Source: Paramecium tetraurelia
Lineage: Eukaryota
Reading direction: 5' to 3'
Assembly (NCBI GenBank): GCA_000165425.1
Contig: CT868085.1
Coordinates: 248,001 to 312,000, forward strand
DNA length: 64,000 nt
How positions within the stretch are numbered: the stretch's first letter is position 1; each line of letters begins with the position of its first letter. This document shows, one piece after another, positions 34,350 through 48,866 of the stretch. Both the position numbers and the translations under genes were made by a program. A model generated the notes under the pieces. The model saw only the letters and a program-made list of their open reading frames with translations. It was not told the origin of the DNA and made no database searches.

Positions 34350-37300
34350 TCATTATTTTTTTCTTGCACTTAATAATGTACCCTATTGATATTCATTTTA
34401 TAAAGATAGATCATATTAATTTCTGTATATTGGCAATTATTCTTATTCATAAATTTCTTAACTTTGTTGAGTAGTTTAATGTTTTATTTATCCAAAATAT
34501 TCTGTTGGATCAATGATTCGTTCATTTAAACTAACTTTTTAGTTATACTTGTTCTTATGTTTGATTTTAACATTTTTTTTGAAATTGTTCTTTATTTAAC
34601 TTTTAGGACTACTCCTTATACTACTGCTATACTGCATTTGATTCAAAGTATTAGTGAACATCATTTAGGATAACTATTTGCTCTGTTGATTTGATGTCAA
34701 ATTCTCAGAATCAGACATTTCATCCTCATAATCATAACAATTGAAACTAATGTAATTACAATATAGAATACTTTTGTCTACTGACTTTATCATTTTAAAT
34801 GCTTATTTCATCACTGTCTGAAAATTTGCCTTCTTTTTCTATTTTGATAAACACTAATTTAGAGTAAGATTCCCAAGTTTTGAATAGGATTAAAACTGTC
34901 AAATAATCATGTAAAATGTTGAAATTAGCTCTTAATTGTTTACTAGAACTAATGTTTGTTCTCTCTAATAATCTATTTTTTCTATAGTACATCAATCTCA
35001 ACTACATTTCATTATTGAATTATTTGATCTTGACAATCGAAGATTCAGTGCCTTCTTTGAATACTTCGTTGATAAAACATCTTCGAAATAGTTCATACAT
35101 CAATTAGTTATATTAAATATAGCCATAATGATCACTAGGATAGAAAAGATAAATACCATTTTAATTTGAATGAAGAAGCCAATTTAGCTACATCCCAGAG
35201 ATTCTCTTCTTTGCTTCCTCCTAAAGGTTTGCCAATATCCAACAGAAACTTGCATAAGAACTTATAATTCATGGCTTGTCCTTGAGTTTCTGATGAGTAT
35301 TTACACCATACAGTCTTAATCTTATCCACATTTTCAACATATGTTTGAATAAGCGAATTTTGCAATTAAAAGAATTGTTCAAATTGTTCTATAAGACCAA
35401 GTACAAAGAGATTGAGCAAAACATAATTTGACAAGAGCATGAACAAAAAGAAAAAATATTAATTATTAACACTACCACAATATTTGGGGTCTTCTAAACA
35501 CAAAGGATTATGTTACATAGTATCTGTCATTATTGTCCTCCAATCATCTCCAGAAGCGCATTTAAACAAAGCAAGAAGAGCCTAAGCTACATTTTGAAAA
35601 TTGATTTGATCATCCATCACAGCTCCACCATCAATCTCACCATACAATTAGCATCCAATCAATGCAAAAATGAGCATTGCTATCATTAGGATTGTAAAGA
35701 TCTTGCCTAAAAAAGGCAACGCAAATACCATCACTCTCATCAATCTTTACAAATTGATAAGTCCTTAGAAGATCAAAATCACTCTTAGACTTCTCAAAGA
35801 GAAAAACAATCTCAATAATTGATATCCATTATCATAAGGTGTTGATTTATAATAGATCATAATCCAATCGATCGAATAATCTGCTATAAAATCTATTATT
35901 GATACTATTATTAAAAAGAAATAAAATCTTCTCCAATAATTATCGAAAAATCTACCAATACCCAAAGCCAAAAATAGCAAAATCACCCAGATCACATATA
36001 ACACAGTCAAAGCATTATGGATATTATTGACTGATCTAAAGTACTCTTCACTCATATCTGATTCAAACAATAACAGAATTATCAAGTCCAATATCAAAAA
36101 CAAATACATACAAATTAACAAATATGTATTGTTAGTAATATCTGATGCCAATTTTCTAATACCATTTGTAGGAGGAGAACTGAATATTGGAAAATCTTTA
36201 ATTATAATTGATGCAATTTCTTAGAATTCCTTCTAAGACTGAGTCTCATCTGTCATCTCTATTTTTTATTAATTTTCTTTCAAATTTGAATACAATACTC
36301 CTGTGAATAAACTCAAAAAGAACATTGAACCTATGAAAACAAATATGATAAAAAAGAAGTAAGTGTATACATAACTATTGAATGCCTCTGGTCCAATACT
36401 TGCTAATTAACTGTTTTCAGCGATTTAATATATTTCTCCCCAGCCATCTAATGTTGATGTTACAAATAATGAGGGTATTGCAACTGTTATATTATCAAAA
36501 TTATGTTTGTAGTTAATCCAATGTCTATTTTCTCTTATACATTATTCATAATTAATTTTAAAATTCATTTTGTCATCACAAAATCCAAATTGTCCTTCAT
36601 ACAATATAATAGCATATACTCCAAACATAATCCACACTGCTAACATTGTAATCAAAACATTTGTGATATCTACTAAAGAATACCCTAATGCAATTCTTAA
36701 TTAAGTCAGCCAACTTATCCTAAATAACAATTTCATCGGTCTCAAATACCCTAAATACAAGCAAACATCAAAGATTGGAGCATAGTGATCTGAAGAATTG
36801 CTGAAGGTAATGAAATGTGAAATGATGTATATTACATCTAAAATTTACCACACTGACACAAAATATGATCCCTTATCTAAAAATAACCCTTTTGCTATAA
36901 CATTGATTATTATATCTAAAAACATTTGAATGTTGATTATTAACTGAATCTAATCACAAACTATATTGCTAGTATCCTCATAATCATAGTATGTATTCAT
37001 TATAAAAGTAACCAATGAAGTGTACAACACTAGATCCATAAAGTAAATATAAGTTTTAGATGTTGCTAATCTAGTGCATATCATTCTTAAATAATTAGTC
37101 TTTTCAAAAATGTAAAGAGAGGTTTAACATTCAATTCCTGTATATAGCTTTGGTGATTTATTGAGCAATTCCTTATTTAAAGATCCTAAGTTGATTAAAC
37201 ATATATTTAGTACTTATTGATTTAAAAAAGTTGGTTATGAGACCAATCTTAGATTTTCCTTAAGTTTAAGTTTGTTCTAGCATAATATTAGTTTAAGATG

Positions 37301-40300
37301 CTTGTGGAGTCAAGATTGTCTAATATACTTATTGTTCTAATTCTTAATTGGAATTCTAAGTCAATTGAGCATTTTCTTCATGTACGTGTGTACTTTCAAT
37401 TGATTAGTCTAGATACTTCCCAAAACCATCAAGTAGAATAGCCATAAATAGACCATAAGTTAAATAATTCAATATGATAACCATCGAATAAGAATATATT
37501 ACTGCGAAAGTGTAATTAATATCACTTCCCATTACATACACTCCATACCAATCATCATTGGTCATTATGTTAAATATTGTCATGAATGCTTTAAATATGT
37601 TATCATATGAATGCAATTGTCCTAAAGAATCAGCCTAATCAAACTTACCTGCATACATCTCCATTCCAACCAAAGCATACATAAAAATCACTAAAAACAT
37701 CAAAAATGTCAAATAAATGTATTGTTTGAAAGTCATTGATGCTATGTGTCCTATTTTAACAGCCATCGCATTGTATTTTAGACACCGATAAAATAACAAA
37801 CATTTTGTACCTCTAATCAATCTCAAGTTTTATTATCCCAAACCAATTAACAGATTCTTAATAGTTAATTCAACTATATTCAATATAACAATTGCTGCTT
37901 AAAGTAAGTAATTAGGATTGCTGGTAAAATTTTTTATTGAGATTGATATCAATCTTAGAATCAATTCAAAGGATAGTATGATAGTTGAAACGTTTTCAAC
38001 TGAATGGATTGTAGTAGAATCTACAATATTCCATAATGCCAAAAATGTAAAATTTATGAAAATAATCAAGTCAAAAAATGTTTGACTAGTTGAACTTGTA
38101 ATTATAACATTGGTATGTTTGTTAAAATTTAGAACCATTCCTTTGAGACCTTTCATCCAAATTAGGATGTCCTTTCTGTTGAGTTGAAGGAAAATTTGAC
38201 TAAACATCTAATAGTTTTTTGTATTTAGAGTTAATACGTCTTTACCTGACCAATTGCTTGAAGTGATCAGCTTTCCATTTTAAACTTCTTTCTCTCTTAT
38301 TTTTCTATATTTAAATTGATTACTTGTTTAATTATCTTTGATAATTGGGATTTTCAAATTAATTTTATCACGAATTTCTTTATATGAAAGATAATAACCC
38401 TACACATAAACAGCCTATTCACCATTTATAATTTTTATAAATTTCTTTGATTTTTTTTTAATTGATGTATTCTTTTCAAAACAAAAATTCAGTTTTTATT
38501 CAGGAGATCTTTCAAAATCATCACAAGAATTTTTGCTTGTTTCTTATTCTTTTTCATCCTCTATTTTGATGGTAGTATTCCATTTATTACTTTTCTTTTA
38601 TCTATAAGGGAACTTATTCTTCTTAATTTCAATAGATCTTTGAGCCTATTTCTTTAACTTCTCTACTTAACCCTGCCAATCAGGATATTAATGCTTAAAT
38701 TTAATTTTTCTCATTTTTTCTGGATTGAATTTCTTTTCTTCTTACAATGCTAAATCAATTTCACTAATTTATTAAATTTAAATACATAAACTTTAACAAA
38801 ATGTCATGTTAGCTTGAATAATTTTAATCTATTTATTAATTCACTTAAGATTATAGACATGAATATGATATATTTTACAACTTTTATAGAATTTCTAGTT
38901 CTAGAGGATCATCTGAATACTTTTTAATATTTATCTTTTGTTATTGGTATTTCAATACACGAAACTTAGTCAATAAAAAATTCTTGGTTGTAAATTACCT
39001 TAGTTTATTTTAAAAACTTAAATTCTCTACATTCTATGAAATATCATTTATTTCTTACATATTAGTTATTTAATTTTCTCTATGCAGCTGATAAGGTTCT
39101 AGCTTCAATTATTGTTTTATTCATCTAAGCTTCTGATTCCAAATTCCAACTTAAAACAGATCTTCTCTAAAAAGACTCTCGATATTTTTGAATCGTAGCA
39201 AAAAACCCAATATCTCTTAAAAATGCTACATCAAAGACATTTATTAACTCTCTCTCTGGATATTCTTGATTATCTTTAATCAATTTCTCAATCCTAGCTT
39301 TTTCCTATTGCTTTTCGCTTTCTTCAGCAGCCTCTGAATAATGAGTCTTCAACACAGCTATAACCAAATTAAAACCAAAAAAACCACCCACAAATATAAT
39401 CAACAAATAGTAGACCCAAATCCAAGGATGAAATATTCTCATAGTAAAAAACATCACCCAACTCCAATCATCCATTGTTATAGTTCTTAAAATCTGACCG
39501 TATGAATATATCACATTATTAAATGATGTGGGCATTTTAGGGGTTTCCTCAGTGTACGTACATGTCATGCCATCTTGATAACACTAATTTTGATGACACT
39601 GAATCCACCCATCTGTTTCATCACCATTGTCATATTCACATCGGAAATTAAATAATCCTTAAAATAGAAATACACCAAATATTGCAAAGAATAAGGAAAA
39701 GAGTCCAACTATCATCAAGGCTTCCAATAAAAATTTAATTGATTATTTCAAAGCCAATAACATAACTCCCAATCCTACAAATATATCTCCAAGATAAAAA
39801 AGAAGTGTAATCATTCTTAATGGTGAAATATCTATTATAAAAATCTCTGGATAATAAAGATTAATTGTAGTAGCAAATATCAATGTGAAATCATAAATAT
39901 CCTAAATGTTTCGAAAGAATGCATTTTTTGTAAAAAAAAATCCTGAAACGAAGATTCTCATCAAAATTTCAATTATGAATAGTATAGTTACTGCCTATTC
40001 AATTTCAAATGTGTCTTCTCTATGCTCTGTCTTAACAACTATAAATAAGCAAACATTAAATAATATTAGGATTGTCATAAGCATTTTGTATATTCTGGTA
40101 TTCATCATTCCCTTTGCTAAGATCGGAATCACTAACGAAATAAAAACAAGACATTTGCGAATCTGCAAAAATTTTACATTATCTTAGTATTTCTCAATAT
40201 TATAATTACATATACCTTTAATTCATAAAATAATCTGCTTAGACCCTATAGTGGTACTAATATAATATAGTATGGATCTTGAAAAGGATTTCGCTAGATT

Positions 40301-40873
40301 TGTTTCTCATATCTTTTGATTATCTTCTAGTAAGCTATTTCATTTTCCTGTGGTTCCTCTTGTTCTATAGCTAATAGTTTAGTAATTTCCAACAATTTGT
40401 CTCTATTCTGCAAATCTTACATCTCATAATCACACTGGGGATTGGCATTCAGGGATTTTACATTAAGATTCTCGATAAACTTTTTTGACGTTTTTCTTGA
40501 TTCATATGAAATATATTGAATGGTTAATATAGTTTCTTCGGAATAATCAGATGAATTTAAATTATACTCTTCACAACCCTCTAATTCTTTATCTTATTTT
40601 TTTCTACTTTTAAAAGCAAATAATTAACTTTTTTTATTTAACCAAAGAGGAGCGAGAATTCAAGGATGAATCTATTGATTCTTTTCTATTCTCCTTTTCT
40701 TATTTAATCACTTTTTATGGAGATCCCTATTTTACTATTTGAGTGCCGGCTAATCAAAATGAAAAACATAGAATACATTAAAATTACTAAATAATGCTCT
40801 ACTTTCTTTAAGCCAATTCTTTCGAAATTGTTTATCGTTTTTTGTTATTCCTGGGTTAGTGCTATTAATCCAT
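34350..40873 (-). CDS. Four-domain (24-TM) voltage-gated-type cation channel alpha subunit, D/D/D/D filter; copy A
   Basis: Four pore loops TMDDW, TNDDW, TLDGW, SGDDW; S6 motifs FNLVIAVL and LNLFVLGLIEQF; EF-hand-like C-tail; TGA 34350-34352. The start codon (40873) is tentative because the 5' exons are ambiguous. Confidence 0.88.
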
Positions 40874-42517
40874 GAAGAACAATAAATAATAATTTAATAG
40901 TAAATACAAGTTAATATTTTCAAAAAACAATAAATCAACAATAGAAAATAAAATAGAGACAATGATAATCCTTTTAAAATTTTTATCTCAAATGATCCAG
41001 AAATTTGTTCTTACTTTGATAAAATATAGAGTCTTATATAATTTACTGATCATTATTGAACAATCTAATATAATTGCATTATCCGAATATCTAGTTAATA
41101 TAAATGCCAATATCAAAGAAAAATTGTGATAATTTATATTTTCAATTTCAAACATTGACTTTTTTATTAAAGTTATTAATAAACTATTTGTACTCTTTAC
41201 CCTTCCCATAATCCAACTATTTTTAAATTATCCTTATTCAACTGCAACTCATTCTAATCGACCTTCCCTCATCAACTCTTTAGAGAACATAGGTTTTCTT
41301 TATTAATTAAGATGGCATACTATATATATTTCCTAATCCTTACACAATTAAGTTTCTTAACCTAATGCTTTTATATTCATTCCTAAGTAATATTTTCACC
41401 TCCAAATCCATATTGATTGACTTTTCATTCAAAGTTCTTGACTTGATCATTATGATTTTAATTATCACTCAATCAATTTATCATTTTCCAAAAAATAATA
41501 ATTATTTACATACTCTCTTCTTTTCAACTCTAGTTAAGTAATTTGTTGCACTTTATTGGTGGCAAACAAACAAAGTGCATTTTATTCTATTGATAGTATA
41601 ATTTATAAACACTACTTATATATTTTGGATGTTTATTGTTTTTAATGTTATTCTTAAACTTTTAAATTTAAAGATCGTCTTATTTCATTCATTTTTAAAT
41701 TAGAAGGACTATATTAGAATTATTATTATTATTTTTAATAATCATACTATAATTAAATTATTTTGACTCAATCCCAAGTTCTATTTTAACATTATCATTC
41801 TAACTTTCTCTTTACTTTTAATTTTGATATATAAATTAGTATTTTCTAATTCACATATTTTAAGATGACTATTCACAATTTCTAAGTTTCAGAAATTCAC
41901 TAAAATTAAAGACTTTATAATAATTTCTTAAAAAATGAATATTTTTAAATTATATATTAATTACTAATTCCTATTAAATTTATATCAGAGTGTCCTCACT
42001 AAGGTAATTTCTAAAAAATTTAATTATGAATGCTATAATTATTATGTCTTTAATATTTCACCCACAAATGTTTCGTTTACTTTCATAATTTCTATCCTAA
42101 TTTTAACTTGAATCTTAAAGTTTTATCATAATTGATTAAATAGATTGAGTGAGGAGTAATTATAAAGTCCTTAATTGAGCAATTATAGGAATTACTATTT
42201 TGTTTAAATTGTTAAAAATGTCTTAAAATTGTTAGAACTTGATTTAAAGGAATTCCTTTTTGGTATTTTAGATGAAGTTTTCTAATTTTAATGCTTAAAT
42301 CATATGCAGTAGATTAGTTTATCTTGAAATTTATTTTAATTTAGTTAAATCAAAATATTTCAAATAATTTATATCTGATGTCATTGAACAAACCCTATGA
42401 TATGCTAAAGATCCTAAATGGAATGATGAGATTAGAATAAGATTAAGATAAGGCGATATGATGATTGAGTTTTTGATAAACTACAATGATTAAATTATAT
42501 TAATTTTTCAATAAAAC

Positions 42518-45500
42518 ATGCTTGTAAAGGATAATTCATCACCATAAAAGTTTTCAGCTTAGCAACAAGAATTCAAAAAACAAAAGAGTCAACGATTTAC
42601 TATTTCTAATTAAATGAAGAAAAAGAGTCCTACAAGATATTTTAGGGAGATGAAGAGTCTAAAATAACATCGTCAATAAACGATATTAAAGAGTTCAAAA
42701 AGTTTTCAGCCTAAAAGATAAAGTTAAGATAACTCCTCAGAATCAAGCGAATGCGACAATATTGACGAGAAATCAGACATGGAAGAAAAAATTATAGCAG
42801 TACCTAATTTGAGTTTTAAAGAAGGGCTAATGGTTACACATGAATAACCAGAATAATTAACTCATAATTCTTCTGATCCACAGCATTCATAGAATCAGAA
42901 ACATCATATTATCAAAAATATCAAAAAATGCTAAGGTGATCATAGCCTGATGAGTGATATGAATTCATAAGAAAACTTACTTTCTAGAGATTAGGATTCT
43001 TTTCAGAATAGAAGCTTTTAAAATTTCTTATAAGTGTAACCAATAGAAGACAGATAAGATTTTTATGAAGAGCTTGATCCAAGAATACTCAAAAAATATT
43101 AAAAACATGCAGAGCGTAATCCTTTCGAAGATTCATATTATGTTGTGCTTACACCACTTCATGGCTTAGAACGCCTTAGATATGAATTAAATGTAATAGA
43201 TATAATTATTAATCTTAGAATTACAATGACCATCTAAATTTACTCAAACTAAGAAAATACATTGTTTATTCATTCTTATGCATACCTATGCATTTTTAAA
43301 GAATTGTAGATAGTGTCTAATTTAAAATTATCAATGGTATTCTCATTATTTGCAATTTAACTTTTTTCACTTTGAGCAATTCATCTCCACCAGTTACAAA
43401 TGAGGAATACAAATAATTTATCTTTTATTGTTTTGCTATTGAAATCGGAATAAGAATTATTGCTGCAGGAGGAATCTATCCAACCATTCATTTTTTATGC
43501 AGCAAAGAAGACATGTTTAATTTGCTATGCACATTAATTACATTCCTACATTATTTTTATCCTAAACATATTTCATTTGATCTATCACCATTAAGAATAA
43601 TTACAATATTATTATATTTGGGAGATGGATTATTACGACTTAAATACATGTTGATAGCTCTCAAAAAATCATTAATATTTTTGGCGGAGGCTATTTTTAT
43701 ATTACTTATATTATCTCTCCTATTTTCAATAATTGGAGTGTCTCTGTTTTAAGGATTATTTAATTACCGATGCTAACCTATGGTAGGAGAACCTATTGAT
43801 GAATGGGTTCAATGTTATTAAAATATTTGTCCTGATGGCATGATTTGTGTGTTTTCATCAGAGACTCCTAAGCTTCCAACTTCATTCAATAATGTGATTT
43901 TTTCCTTTGGTTAGATATTAAGAACAATAACAATGGATGATTGGAGTTGGGTTATGTTTTTCACAATGAGGATATTCCATCCTTAGATATGGATTTATTA
44001 TTTAGGAGTCATTTTTTTATGCGGTTTCTTTTCTATAAATTTAATGATAGCTGTTCTTAAGATTCATTATTCTGAGGCCACAGCAGAATGTGAAGATTAT
44101 GAGAAGTTATCAAAATAGAAAAACGATCACAGCTTAATGCGGCAGGAGATGTTTTTAAGTAAAGACCTTATTACTTATTTCGACTTGTCATTTTTAAGAT
44201 ATATTGGATTTTATTCTGTTTTGAAAAAACATAAATTATTGCTTAATACTGCCAAACCCTTAACTGAATTGATTGATGACGAGAATAAAGTCGATAAATT
44301 TAATAATTAATTGCGATTGTTGTCGTCTAAATAAAAGAAGATTTTAGACGAAGCCAAGTAGGTATTATTATGACTTAATTTTAGAAAAGTCTAAAGAAAT
44401 CTTTTTGGAATTAATTTAAAAATTTTTCTATTAAATAATGGATGCTGCCCAAATTTAAAGATCTATAAATAGAATAAAATAAAATAAATATTAAGATGTA
44501 TTCTGATGATCCAATTGAAATTTCCATACTTTTGAAATTAAGCGAATATTAATTCACTTAATTCCACAATTCTGTTAATTATCATGTAGATTAAAAATTC
44601 AAGAGTCTTAAAGATGTTTTCATATAAAAAAAGAGGTATAATATATGAATTTACAAGCTAGAGTTGCGCATAAAGAAAAAATCAAAATATATTATCAACC
44701 TCTTTTCACTAAGAAAGAAATCAAAATCATACCTCGTTAATAATCAGATGTTTCCCTAAGTCGTTATCCAATACACAAGAGTACTCGTAGAATAACTGTT
44801 TAAAGATCATTTAGTATTAAGGATGACAGTCATGGAACATAATCACCTTAAGTTAGAAAAAGATAGAATGATATTTTTGGAACTGTGAACATTAGGTCAA
44901 GAGTGGAAAGAAAATTACCATTTCAAATTTTAAGGGGAACGAGAAAATATATATATATTCATGGATTTTATATTGATTATGAGTAGATATAGGAGAAAAT
45001 AAATACAAAAATACCTAAAACAAAATAAGTTTTAGATTCAAATGAGGAGGTCTATTTATAAATTTTTTAAAGGGAAAGAGAATAAAAACTCATCAAGTCA
45101 AAAAATTGGTCAGGAAATAATGTTCTCTCTTTGAATCCTAATAGAATGTAGTAATTTCAGGAGATATTCAATAGTTTAAATAATTTCAACCATCTTATAT
45201 GGATGCCAACCTTTGGTGGCAAATTACTGATTTTACGAAGATACACTCTTATAATTATTGATAACAAGATTACTCAATTTTTCTTTGATTTCATAATTCT
45301 AATCAACTTCATATTCCTTTCATTATATGGAATAGCTGATGCTCGTATAATATCGAAATTTGAAGACATATCTACTATAATTTTATTGATTGAAATAGGG
45401 TTTCAAATGTTTACATACCCTTTGCATCGTTTCTTTTCTAGCAAGGAAAATGTGCTTTAAGCTATTATTATGATTGCAAGTTTCATTGAATTCAGTTTCA

Positions 45501-48500
45501 GTGATTATTTAAACTTAACCTAATAGTACTTAAGAATGATCAGAGGAACTAAATGCATTTTATTTTATAGATGCTTAAAATATAATTAAATGGCTGTACT
45601 CATAGGTAAAATAGCTTCAATAACATTTAAATAATACATCTATTTGACAATATTTATGTTCATTATGATTACTATATATGGGCTAATTGGAATGGATCTT
45701 TATGCTGGATAATTTGATCAAAATGAGCCCTTAGGATAGTTACACTCTTTTGATAATCCTTTGAAAGCTGGTATGACTATTTTCAATATAATGACAAATG
45801 ATGATTGGTATGGAGTATATGTAATAGGATCTGAACTCAATTTAACAGCAGCTGTAATTTTTTCATTTTCAATGGTTTTAATTTTAAATTATTTAACATA
45901 TGGATTAGTCTTGGCAATTTTATTGGATGGGTTTGGGAGATATTTAGAAGAAAAACATGATTAGGATGGAAATTAACAATAATTATTGACATCTTAAGCT
46001 TCAAACAACAGAGATGAAGAAGCCCTGAATACAGAAATAGATTCTATGTTTGATTAGAAAGTTAAGTCTTAGTATTTCTCATAAGTTTAAATTTTTGATT
46101 AAAATGAAGAGAAGGAATAACCAAAAATTAAACTTGATATTATTAAATCATTCCAGAGATCTCTAAGTATTAAGTCTTAATTATATTAGAGTAATTAAAT
46201 AAATAGATACTAATGTCGAATCCAAAGTTATATTAAGATATAGAATGCGAAACTGCTTTGTATTTCTTTGCCAAAAACAGTAGGATTAGAGTTATTTGTT
46301 GCAATATCTGCACATCAAAGAGATTTTCATGGTTTTCAAACACAGTGATGGTTTCCTCAATATTTCTTATGATAGTCAGAACATATCATGATTATGAAGA
46401 TGAAAAGAGCTAATATCCCTATATAATATTAGCAATTTTGAATGTGCTTAAGCTATTTGAGGATATCATTTCGATAATAGCTAAGGGATTATTTATGGAT
46501 AAGGGTAGTTATTTAAATTATTCCTGGTAAGTGGTGGATCTAATTTATTTGTTTGCTTTCTTTATTGATACATACAAATAAAATCCAATAATAGACGTGT
46601 GTTTATTTTTTGGACATTTTAGGCCAATGAAGCTGATGTATAGAATCAAATGGTTAGATAATATAAGGGCTGCATTAGCATAATCTTTATTGGACATGCT
46701 TAAGATTTTGTTAACTTTGATTTCTGTTTGGATAATGTTTGGAGTTTTTGGCATAATCTTATATGAAAGTTAATTTGGATTTTGTGATGATAAAATGCAA
46801 TTCAATGTTAACTAATAGGAATGCATTGAAAATGATAGGAAATGGATCAATTATAAACATAATTTTGACAATATAACAATAGCCTTGCCAACATTATTTG
46901 TAGTATCAACATTTGATGGATGGGGTGAAATAATGTAAGTGGCAGAAAATAGCAGATAAAGTAATTTAGGTCCTGCACCATTTGCATCATATTTATCAAC
47001 CTATGGTTATTTCATGTCCTTTTGTTTTATAGGTTCAATGTTCTTTTTAAGCTTTTTTACAGGAACACTGTTTTCTAAATTAAGAGTGAATTAATAAAAG
47101 ATAGAAATGTAGAATGTAACAAGGTCTTAGAAAGAGTTTGTTGAATTATGTCCTATGATACTAAAAGACTCTCCTGGTTTTTCGACTCCACCTACTAGAT
47201 TCATGGGAAGATTGTCATCATTTATAGTTAACAATTCTATTAGTTAGAAATTCATGTTTTTATTACTATTGGTTGATTTAATATGTTAATTGCAATACCA
47301 CTATGGCATGAATATAGATAAAATAAGAACCCTGAATCTAATTTAAAGGTTTTTAATTCTATTTTATGGCATATGGATAGTTTTACTATTTATGTAATTA
47401 GGTATTAATAGATACTTTGACAATTATTGGAGAAGATATTATATTTTTTTAATTTTTATCTCTCTATGTGATATCATAGCAGATTTTCAATATGATTGGG
47501 TCATCCTTTATTATGAATCCAATGTTTACACACCCAACTATTAGATATTAAGACTGGCCTTTATGACAAGATAGTTGAGACTCTTAGGAATCTTTCAGGG
47601 ATTAAGTAATTTATCAAGATTGATTCGAGTCATGGGTTTTGCTATTCCTTTTTTAGCTAAACTTATCTCTATTCTCATTATTACAATGATCATTTATGCT
47701 TTGATTGGGTGTGAACTATTTGGTAAAATTAAACAAGGGGCAGTCATTGACGAATACATAAACTTTACGAATTTCGAATATGCATTATTGGCATTATATA
47801 AGTGTGCATCAGGGGATGATTTTAGAACAATAATGACTGATACGATGCACCATAATCCATATTGTTTAGAGAACTCTGACAATTGTGGATCAGATTTTAA
47901 TTAATTATATTTCATTACTTTTATGCTATTCTCCAATTATGTTCTATTAAATTTATTTGTTCTTGGATTGATAGAATAATTTGAGGAATTCTTTCAGGTA
48001 TAGAATTCAATGATTCAAACTTACGTAGAGTAAATTGATAAGATTAAAACTACTTGGTGTAAATATTCAGCCGATAATAATGGTGAAAGCATGCATTATA
48101 AATTCCTATGTCGATTCTTACTAGATATTGGCTAACCATTGGGAGGAGGGAATGAAGATAATCTTTGGGATGCTGCGAAATTGGCATCAAAATTAAATCT
48201 TAGATGGTATCTTTATATCTATGCATCTTAGTGATCCATATGGGTATATTCAATATAATCAATTATTGTATCATTTATTTAGAAGTTGCTATCATGATGA
48301 AATCTTTAAGGATGGATCTCAAGAGTCCATCAAAAAGATTAAACAATTCAATAAAGAAATGCATACAAGATTGTATTATTATAGAAGAAACAAAACTCAG
48401 AAGAGGAGCAATATTTGTCTAAATAATTTACAATTTAAATCTAATTTTAACATTCTTCATGATTATCTAAATGTTTTAATCTTATTTAAAACTTGGTAGT

Positions 48501-48866
48501 CATACTCAAGGTTATTAGTTTAAAAAATAATCAGAAGATAAGATGATTACACAGAAAATGATGAAATGACCATTGATATGGAATATTTCAGTCCATAATA
48601 GTAAATAATTTCATTAATTTATTAGTCGGCAAACTGATTTTATATCTGATGGTTTTAGCTCAAGGAGAACAACTGATATTAAGTTCTAAGAGAATTTGAC
48701 TGGCCATCATGTATCTAGATAGAGTCATGAATCTTAGCAGCAATAGCATTAGTTACCTATTTATTAAAACACTCTGTAATAGGAAACAGATAGAATATAC
48801 GGAGGGTTTGATGAAAATGTAATTTTGGGTTTCAAAGAAATTAGATTTAAAAATTGTAATTAATGA
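42518..48866 (+). CDS. Four-domain (24-TM) voltage-gated-type cation channel alpha subunit, D/D/D/D filter; copy B
   Basis: ATG 42518, pore loops TMDDW, TNDDW, TFDGW, SGDDF; introns including 43193-43218, 44636-44661, 48207-48231 and 48601-48625; TGA 48864-48866. Confidence 0.9.

Follow-up and report, generated by a model that had tools for sequence, protein, structure and literature searches.

Two complete genes for four-domain cation channels with an all-aspartate selectivity filter were identified in a 64,000-nucleotide (nt) stretch of the Paramecium tetraurelia genome (contig CT868085.1, forward strand, positions 248,001 to 312,000). The whole stretch is called the window here, and positions are counted from its first letter. 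The genes, referred to as copy A and copy B, lie head to head and each encodes four repeats of six transmembrane segments (4x6TM). Both are almost certainly members of subclade Ic of the ciliate channels, a Paramecium-specific class that has been in print since 2018 and is not new. The two genes are expressed, anciently duplicated Ic neighbours encoding single-chain pseudo-tetramers of the Cav/Nav type, which, with a probability of roughly 60%, would conduct divalent cations (most likely Ca2+), respond weakly or unconventionally to voltage and be modulated by calmodulin. The two genes are located as follows.

34350-40873, minus strand: copy A gene with four Ion_trans repeats; 9 exons, 2,108 amino acids (aa), no internal stops
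42518-48866, plus strand: copy B gene with four Ion_trans repeats; 7 exons, 2,066 aa

The pore motifs were read from the translation with ciliate code 6, in which TAA and TAG stand for Gln. All eight were found exactly as given in a preliminary description of the window, which had been made from the letters alone.

39464-39478, minus strand: copy A repeat I, TMDDW; the filter Asp is aa 443; register from PDB chain and MAFFT
37548-37562, minus strand: copy A repeat II, TNDDW; register from PDB chain and MAFFT
36440-36454, minus strand: copy A repeat III, TLDGW; register from PDB chain and MAFFT
35540-35554, minus strand: copy A repeat IV, SGDDW; register from MAFFT
43930-43944, plus strand: copy B repeat I, TMDDW; register from MAFFT
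45794-45808, plus strand: copy B repeat II, TNDDW; register from MAFFT
46909-46923, plus strand: copy B repeat III, TFDGW; register from MAFFT
47809-47823, plus strand: copy B repeat IV, SGDDF; register from MAFFT; Phe replaces the near-invariant Trp at +2

For the analysis of the filter register, HMMER alignments to channel chains from the PDB were used together with a MAFFT alignment of 10 sequences, among them a Paramecium E/E/E/E paralogue, Tetrahymena, Blepharisma, a schistosome Cav1, and Cav1-like and Cav3-like sequences. In the HMMER alignments TMDDW stands opposite TMEGW of Cav1.1 repeat I, TNDDW opposite TQEDW of Cav3.2 repeat II and TLDGW opposite TFEGW of Cav1.2 repeat III. Among the alignments listed, SGDDW stands opposite TGEDW of Cav1.2 repeat II; the repeat IV stretch of that alignment lies beyond the listed part. 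In the MAFFT alignment the repeat IV motifs SGDDW and SGDDF are aligned with TGESW and TGEAW, and the register is identical in all four repeats. The register is thus unshifted (HMMER for repeats I to III, MAFFT for all four), and the preliminary claim of Asp at the E/E/E/E locus in every repeat of both copies, with a second Asp at +1 in repeats I, II and IV, was borne out. The +1 pattern is D/D/G/D, which brings the number of carboxylates to seven. A T/S-x-(D/E)-x-W pore loop was found at the selectivity locus of every repeat, save the Phe for Trp in copy B repeat IV.

Channels with this filter were defined as a group in a survey of eukaryotic four-domain channels (Pozdnyakov, Matantseva and Skarlato, 2018, Sci Rep; PMC5824947). 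According to its available text, the ciliate channels form the well-supported clade I, in which subclades Ia and Ib have an E/E/E/E filter and a fourth transmembrane segment (S4) rich in Arg and Lys (R/K). Subclade Ic is described by a dominant D/D/D/D filter, at least one R/K-poor S4, an IQ motif and a pre-IQ region that was not identifiable, and its members are called likely voltage-insensitive. In Fig. S1 of the survey, Ic consists of P. tetraurelia only, Ia of Ichthyophthirius, Tetrahymena and Paramecium, and Ib of Oxytricha and Stylonychia. D/D/D/D channels are also reported there for Chlamydomonas, and a review of 2018 names DDDD among the protist filters, citing Verret 2010 (PMC6259924).

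Two proteins of the survey correspond closely to the genes of the window, as far as the sequence strings given in PMC5824947 go. Paramt34 (XP_001438029.1) is identical to copy B in four S4 strings, in the tetrapeptide QNVT of the III-IV linker and in the IQ string. Paramt28 (XP_001438028.1) agrees with copy A in three S4 strings, in the linker tetrapeptide TDET and in the IQ string, and one residue differs in the S4 of domain IV. The consecutive accession numbers fit the adjacency of copies A and B. Judged by these strings, Paramt28 and Paramt34 are evidently copies A and B or their orthologues. Beyond PMC5824947, the present analysis provides models of the exons and introns, shows that the genes are placed head to head, and adds data on RNA, orthologues from four more aurelia species and a count of S4 charges position by position (5 of 6 in repeat II).

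For the determination of sequence kinship, the exon of copy A that encodes repeats III and IV was compared with PDB chains using phmmer. The E-values were 6.6e-67 for Cav1.2, 1.3e-66 for Cav3.2, 1e-45 for Nav1.5, 8e-26 for NALCN, 1.7e-7 for CatSper4 and 1.8e-4 for CatSper3, the distance to NALCN and CatSper being given by phmmer E-values only. The preliminary description had related the filter to that of CatSper and had considered a channel class that might be distinct and undescribed. Asp does occupy the locus in all four subunits CatSper1-4 (PMC10120453), as stated there, and Paramecium is ciliated, both of which would suit a previously undescribed, CatSper-like class of ciliary Ca2+ channels. 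Such a class is very improbable: the kinship is to Cav and not to CatSper, the group was already described in PMC5824947, and protist DDDD filters are listed in PMC6259924. As judged from sequence, the likeness to CatSper is confined to the filter. Of the proposed class, the distinctness holds, in the form of a separate clade (see below), and the novelty does not, as PMC5824947 defines Ic by the same filter.

The conservation of the filter was analyzed in 54 proteins retrieved with the repeat III-IV exon of copy A, 42 of which are from Paramecium (P. octaurelia, P. primaurelia, P. sonneborni, P. pentaurelia and P. tetraurelia, five named species). Filter positions were called by BLAST mapping from four pore-module queries, a procedure by which repeats can be missed. 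D was found at all four called positions in 36 of the 42 Paramecium homologues, down to an identity of about 45%. Four others had three called positions, all of them D (truncated proteins or one repeat missed), and the remaining two deviate, with DDRD in P0032 and DDND in P0041. The +1 pattern D/D/G/D was present in 34 of the 42. Since the DDDD filter is held in 36 homologues, it is not a product of chance.

Outside Paramecium, a representative library of 1.84 billion proteins was searched, which resulted in 5,854 matches at E-values up to 0.001. The best 150 were examined and 118 of these were tallied, after 32 in which more or fewer than four positions were called had been dropped. A DDDD filter was found in none of these 118 nearest non-Paramecium representatives (best 150 of 5,854 matches, four positions callable). 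The most common filters were EEEE (67), EEDD (11) and EDEE (11), and the best non-fragment match had an E-value of 9.4e-82 at 27% identity. Close Paramecium relatives are almost absent from the library (only the fragments P0080 and P0208), which makes it uninformative on the size of the Paramecium family. A further set of ciliate channels was obtained with a Blepharisma query and comprised Blepharisma, Stentor, Tetrahymena, Ichthyophthirius and six Paramecium proteins of 2,098 to 2,367 aa. Here Glu was found at all called positions (mostly four, three in partial Stentor and Ichthyophthirius rows), with the exception of one Blepharisma protein with EADE.

A maximum-likelihood tree was calculated for the repeat III-IV region (62 rows, LG+G4, quick search, midpoint root), with the Shimodaira-Hasegawa-like approximate likelihood ratio test (SH-aLRT) as the only support measure. 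It describes one region, has no bootstrap, includes several rows of deviant composition and does not contain NALCN, Cch1, TPC, CatSper or the CaV1a-c channels of Lodh et al. A single clade, with an SH-aLRT of 100 and a stem length of 0.92, holds the 13 Paramecium DDDD rows, among them copies A and B and the P. tetraurelia proteins P0016, P0023, P0028 and P0042. The nearest neighbours of this clade are four D-rich environmental sequences (JGI/Logan proteins), which are about 27-30% identical to copy A and are joined to it with a support of 99. Their filters are SDDE (P0050), DDE in three called repeats (P0082) and DDD in repeats II to IV (P0078 and P0211). Through these four sequences the Asp-filter lineage may extend beyond Paramecium.

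The DDDD clade and its neighbours are placed inside a group of 41 rows of ciliate-type channels (support 100), which also holds an EEEE clade of Paramecium, Tetrahymena and Ichthyophthirius, an EEEE clade of Stentor and Blepharisma and an EEEE pair from eukprot, each with a support of 100. The metazoan Cav1/2-like, Cav3-like (P0051 and P0087) and Nav-like rows are located in the opposite half of the tree. On the basis of this tree, the DDDD proteins are not nested in the Paramecium EEEE clade, and the preliminary view that they are distinct from the EEEE ciliate channels holds for the channels included. The layout of Fig. S1 in PMC5824947, as far as it is available, is reproduced.

Homologues seem to be paired on one contig in six cases, judged by an identical length of the longest contig (P0008 and P0033, 716483; P0012 and P0034, 516806; P0025 and P0037, 523000; P0029 and P0038, 314896; P0016 and P0042, 312801; P0030 and P0048, 246856). 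By the tree, most pairs combine a member of the A group with a member of a group that evolves faster (B, P0037 or P0040 type). These observations suggest that an old tandem pair was multiplied by whole-genome duplications and diverged asymmetrically.

The voltage sensors were examined by counting the S4 charges that are kept relative to the Arg/Lys positions of the Paramecium EEEE paralogue P0276 in the MAFFT alignment. In copy A, 12 of 22 positive charges are kept, namely one of four in repeat I, five of six in repeat II and three of six in each of repeats III and IV, and the pattern in copy B is alike. The R/K-poor S4 of subclade Ic is thus found here. In repeat I an Asp follows directly after the lost charges; in repeat III the outer three charges are missing and Asp stands in place of K0. 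The S2 motif Phe-x-x-Glu/Asp and the S3 Asp look retained in repeats I and III in the HMMER alignments. In the C-terminal part, an IQ-like motif could be identified in both copies.

39776-39826, minus strand: copy A S4 of repeat I, one Arg left; placed by alignment; same string as S4-DI of Paramt25/28 (Suppl. Table S2 of PMC5824947)
34864-34896, minus strand: copy A IQ-like motif VLILFKTWESY; same string as Paramt25/Paramt28 (supplement of PMC5824947)
48473-48505, plus strand: copy B IQ-like motif VLILFKTWQSY; same string as Paramt34 (supplement of PMC5824947)

Because repeat II is nearly intact, the published term voltage-insensitive should be softened, and the chances that classical voltage gating has been lost are judged to be even. 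The loss of S4 charges would also suit a leak or non-selective cation channel of the NALCN/Cch1 kind, which would either determine the resting conductance or transport Na+ or Mg2+, possibly as the calmodulin-activated Na+ conductance of Paramecium, in place of a selective Ca2+ current. We regard this as unlikely. The NALCN filter contains a Lys (EEKE/EKEE), and the channel has the partners UNC79, UNC80 and FAM155. No Lys was found in the filter of copies A and B, and the phmmer match to NALCN is much weaker than that to Cav (8e-26 compared to 6.6e-67). The filter also lacks Arg, unlike the sodium-permeable four-domain channels discussed in the available text of PMC5824947. In having lost S4 charges in three of the repeats (I, III and IV), the copies do resemble the voltage-insensitive channels NALCN, Nax and Cch1, an argument made in that survey, and an IQ-like motif is present. 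A DDDD ring leaves the selectivity undetermined in bacterial homotetramers (PMC4436565), which is in line with a leak channel; the +1 Asp, here present in three repeats, accompanies Ca2+ selectivity in the channels that PMC10120453 reviews, which is not. A Ca2+ channel with altered sensors is preferred to a leak channel.

The gene models are consistent with intact, full-length channels. The window, which is DNA of the Paramecium aurelia complex, is AT-rich (GC content 0.23-0.32), and its long frames are open only under ciliate code 6 and are joined by GT..AG introns of 22-28 nt, which are typical for Paramecium. The outer ends of the gene pair are at 34350 and 48866, the limits given in the preliminary description; the stop codon of copy A occupies 34350-34352 and that of copy B ends at 48866. 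Translation of copy B could alternatively begin at an ATG in frame at 42458, and the introns of copy B were deduced from the reading frame, the GTA..TAG ends and the gap-free alignment with the orthologue.

40873-40777, 40749-40629, 40603-40216, 40192-39059, 39033-38786, minus strand: copy A exons 1-5
38763-37214, 37185-35157, 35134-34772, 34746-34350, minus strand: copy A exons 6-9
42518-43192, 43219-44361, 44385-44635, 44662-46166, 46190-48206, 48232-48600, 48626-48866, plus strand: copy B exons

Copy A is 95.3% identical to the P. octaurelia protein P0007 (2,106 aa; 2,108 alignment columns, two gap positions), and copy B is 93.4% identical to the P. primaurelia protein P0033 (2,066 aa) from end to end without gaps. 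The identity between copies A and B is 45.9%. The Pfam domain Ion_trans (PF00520) matched all six exon proteins searched, twice in the case of each exon for repeats III and IV, and the full-length orthologues P0007 and P0033 have four matching stretches each. Both copies thus carry four 6TM repeats on one polypeptide, as is characteristic of the superfamily. The total Ion_trans scores were 342 and 298 bits, half of those of the Paramecium EEEE paralogue (680 bits) and the schistosome Cav1 (830 bits).

Transcription was analyzed with two oligo-dT paired RNA runs bearing the same species label as raw reads and with contigs of the runs X5 and X4, of which X5 is on record as an RNA library and the RNA status of X4 is only guessed. 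Over copy A the first mates were found on the plus strand only (depth 0.2-2.4 per bin), and over copy B on the minus strand only (depth 0-1.3). With the usual stranded design, this mate orientation indicates sense transcription of both genes at a low level. Three of the eight predicted copy A introns are missing from an X5 contig: 34747-34771 (25 nt), 37186-37213 (28 nt) and 40193-40215 (23 nt). The first two are also absent from X4 contigs. At 40194 an X4 contig ends, which is compatible with the third. RNA coverage of copy B was too thin to show introns.

Two copy A introns have unusual features. The 3′ end of intron 3 (40193-40215, minus strand) is GAG and not the usual Paramecium TAG; it is spliced out in the X5 contig at a depth of 20.2 of 20.2. 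Intron 1 (40750-40776, minus strand) has a length divisible by three (27 nt) and contains a TGA in frame, so that its retention would end translation.

The RNA and domain data bear on a further explanation, according to which the proteins conduct poorly or not at all and serve as sensors or scaffolds, act as channels of internal membranes, or are partly decaying paralogues left by whole-genome duplications. The low Ion_trans totals, the low RNA depth and the degraded filters in 2 of the 42 homologues would be in agreement with it, as would the reported loss of current in Cav1.2 after the exchange of EEEE for DDDD (PMC2229573). We consider it improbable, since the filter is unchanged in 36 of 42 homologues across five named species, the frames are intact with 93-95% identity to orthologues over more than 2,000 residues, and both genes are transcribed in sense direction.

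For conducting channels, permeation of divalent cations with a selectivity for Ca2+ is probable by analogy to known filters. In the proposed mechanism, Ca2+ would be bound by the acidic ring with its seven carboxylates in the manner of CatSper and of bacterial channels engineered with aspartate, and divalent cations, most likely Ca2+, would be conducted. The voltage dependence of gating would be weak or unconventional, repeat II being the best-preserved sensor, and calmodulin would modulate the channel via the IQ-like motif. In NaChBac, changing the filter from LESWAS to LDDWAD resulted in a PCa/PNa of 133 (PMC2229573). Asp at +1 was described to accompany Ca2+ selectivity always, with Glu or Asp as the ring residue, in a review of this 'beacon' residue (PMC10120453).

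Several points weigh against the reading of copies A and B as Ca2+ channels with altered gating. The exchange of EEEE for DDDD in Cav1.2 is reported to have abolished the currents of Ca2+ as well as Ba2+ (work cited in PMC2229573), so that an all-Asp ring in a four-domain scaffold alone is no guarantee of Ca2+ conduction. Bacterial homotetramers with a DDDD or EEEE ring were found to be selective for either Na+ or Ca2+ (available text of PMC4436565). No Pfam IQ model is matched by the IQ-like motif in the orthologues P0007 and P0033. Voltage insensitivity is not established by the sequence, as repeat II keeps 5 of 6 charges, and the transcript levels are low. In the B lineage constraint may be relaxed or the function changed: Phe replaces Trp at +2 of repeat IV throughout the lineage of copy B, P0037 and P0040, and the P. 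sonneborni orthologue of copy B (P0032, 83.6% identical) has the degraded filter TTDDW/TNDEW/TFRGW/SGDNF with Arg at the ring position of repeat III. Finally, no functional study of DDDD ciliate channels was found in the full-text literature searched, which is weak evidence because most subscription journals lie outside it.

Among the currents of Paramecium, a somatic Ca2+ current that is activated by hyperpolarisation, inactivated by Ca2+ and responsible for the ciliary beat frequency has been described (PMC8208649). That the Ic channels carry one of the conductances to which the consulted sources assign no channel gene, with this current as the most attractive candidate, is an improbable proposal. 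If it were true, Paramecium would have a functional counterpart of CatSper on a single chain of 24 transmembrane segments with a largely dismantled sensor in repeat I, and the pairing of a slowly and a fast-evolving copy would reflect two specialised channel types. In the available text of PMC8208649, a channel gene is tied only to the ciliary Ca2+ current among the currents described. The large, conserved and expressed Ic family is an obvious pool of candidates for the other currents of the 'swimming neuron' Paramecium. The family further offers a natural test of whether Glu in the Ca2+ filter of a four-domain channel can be exchanged for Asp.

The spacer between copies A and B has a length of 1,644 bp, which is long for Paramecium, and is transcribed, with first mates on the plus strand only at a depth of 1.34 (X23, 41098-41604). 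An X4 contig covers 41123-41396. On the minus strand, the spacer contains three open reading frames at 41465-41692 (75 aa), 41238-41450 (70 aa) and 40988-41209 (73 aa). These frames (40988-41692) may represent the exons of an unannotated small gene, or they may belong to the copy A transcript as its upstream part.

CavAb, an aspartate-engineered bacterial channel, has the filter TLDDW. The NaChBac mutant with LDDWAD ('CaChBac') resembles copies A and B in its xDDW motif, in which both the ring position and +1 are Asp (PMC2229573). It differs in being a homotetramer, which has the +1 Asp in all four units and a further Asp, compared to D/D/G/D in copies A and B.

Compared to other four-domain channels, the proteins are closest to subclade Ic of PMC5824947, with the same genes or their orthologues, the same filter, R/K-poor S4 segments and matching strings at the IQ-like motif; no essential difference is apparent from the available parts of that survey. 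The ciliary CaV1a-c channels of Paramecium (Lodh et al., 2016, J Exp Biol) and the EEEE ciliate channels of Ia and Ib share the organism, the 4x6TM architecture and the wider ciliate group. For the ciliary channels that Lodh et al. (2016) characterised, an E/E/E/E filter and an R/K-rich S4 are given in PMC5824947, and the Paramecium EEEE protein P0276 differs from copies A and B in its E/E/E/E filter, its R/K-rich S4 and its separate clade. With NALCN and fungal Cch1 the copies have in common the four-domain structure and the charge-poor S4, and, following the argument of PMC5824947, they would share a weak or absent classical voltage gating.

Metazoan high-voltage-activated (HVA) channels, Cav1 and Cav2, have an E/E/E/E filter and the domains GPHH and Ca_chan_IQ. 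Both domains are present in the schistosome Cav1 P0316, and no Pfam match to either was obtained in P0007 and P0033, the orthologues of copies A and B. The alpha interaction domain (AID), the site for the beta subunit in the I-II linker, is described for the HVA Cav clade only in the available text of PMC5824947. The low-voltage-activated Cav3 channels have E/E/D/D, and copies A and B, with DDDD, are outside the Cav3 rows. Filter, C-terminal domains and clade all disagree, so that the proteins are not members of Cav1, Cav2 or Cav3.

The resemblance to CatSper consists of the ring Asp in all four pore units; CatSper is Ca2+-selective, and at +1 one unit has Asp and the others have Gly (PMC10120453). 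CatSper is assembled as a heterotetramer from separate 6TM subunits and has many auxiliary subunits, whereas copies A and B are single chains of 2,108 and 2,066 aa. Because of this and the remote similarity (1.7e-7 and 1.8e-4), they are not members of CatSper. In their function, copies A and B would come closest to a Ca2+ channel that has a filter of the CatSper type.

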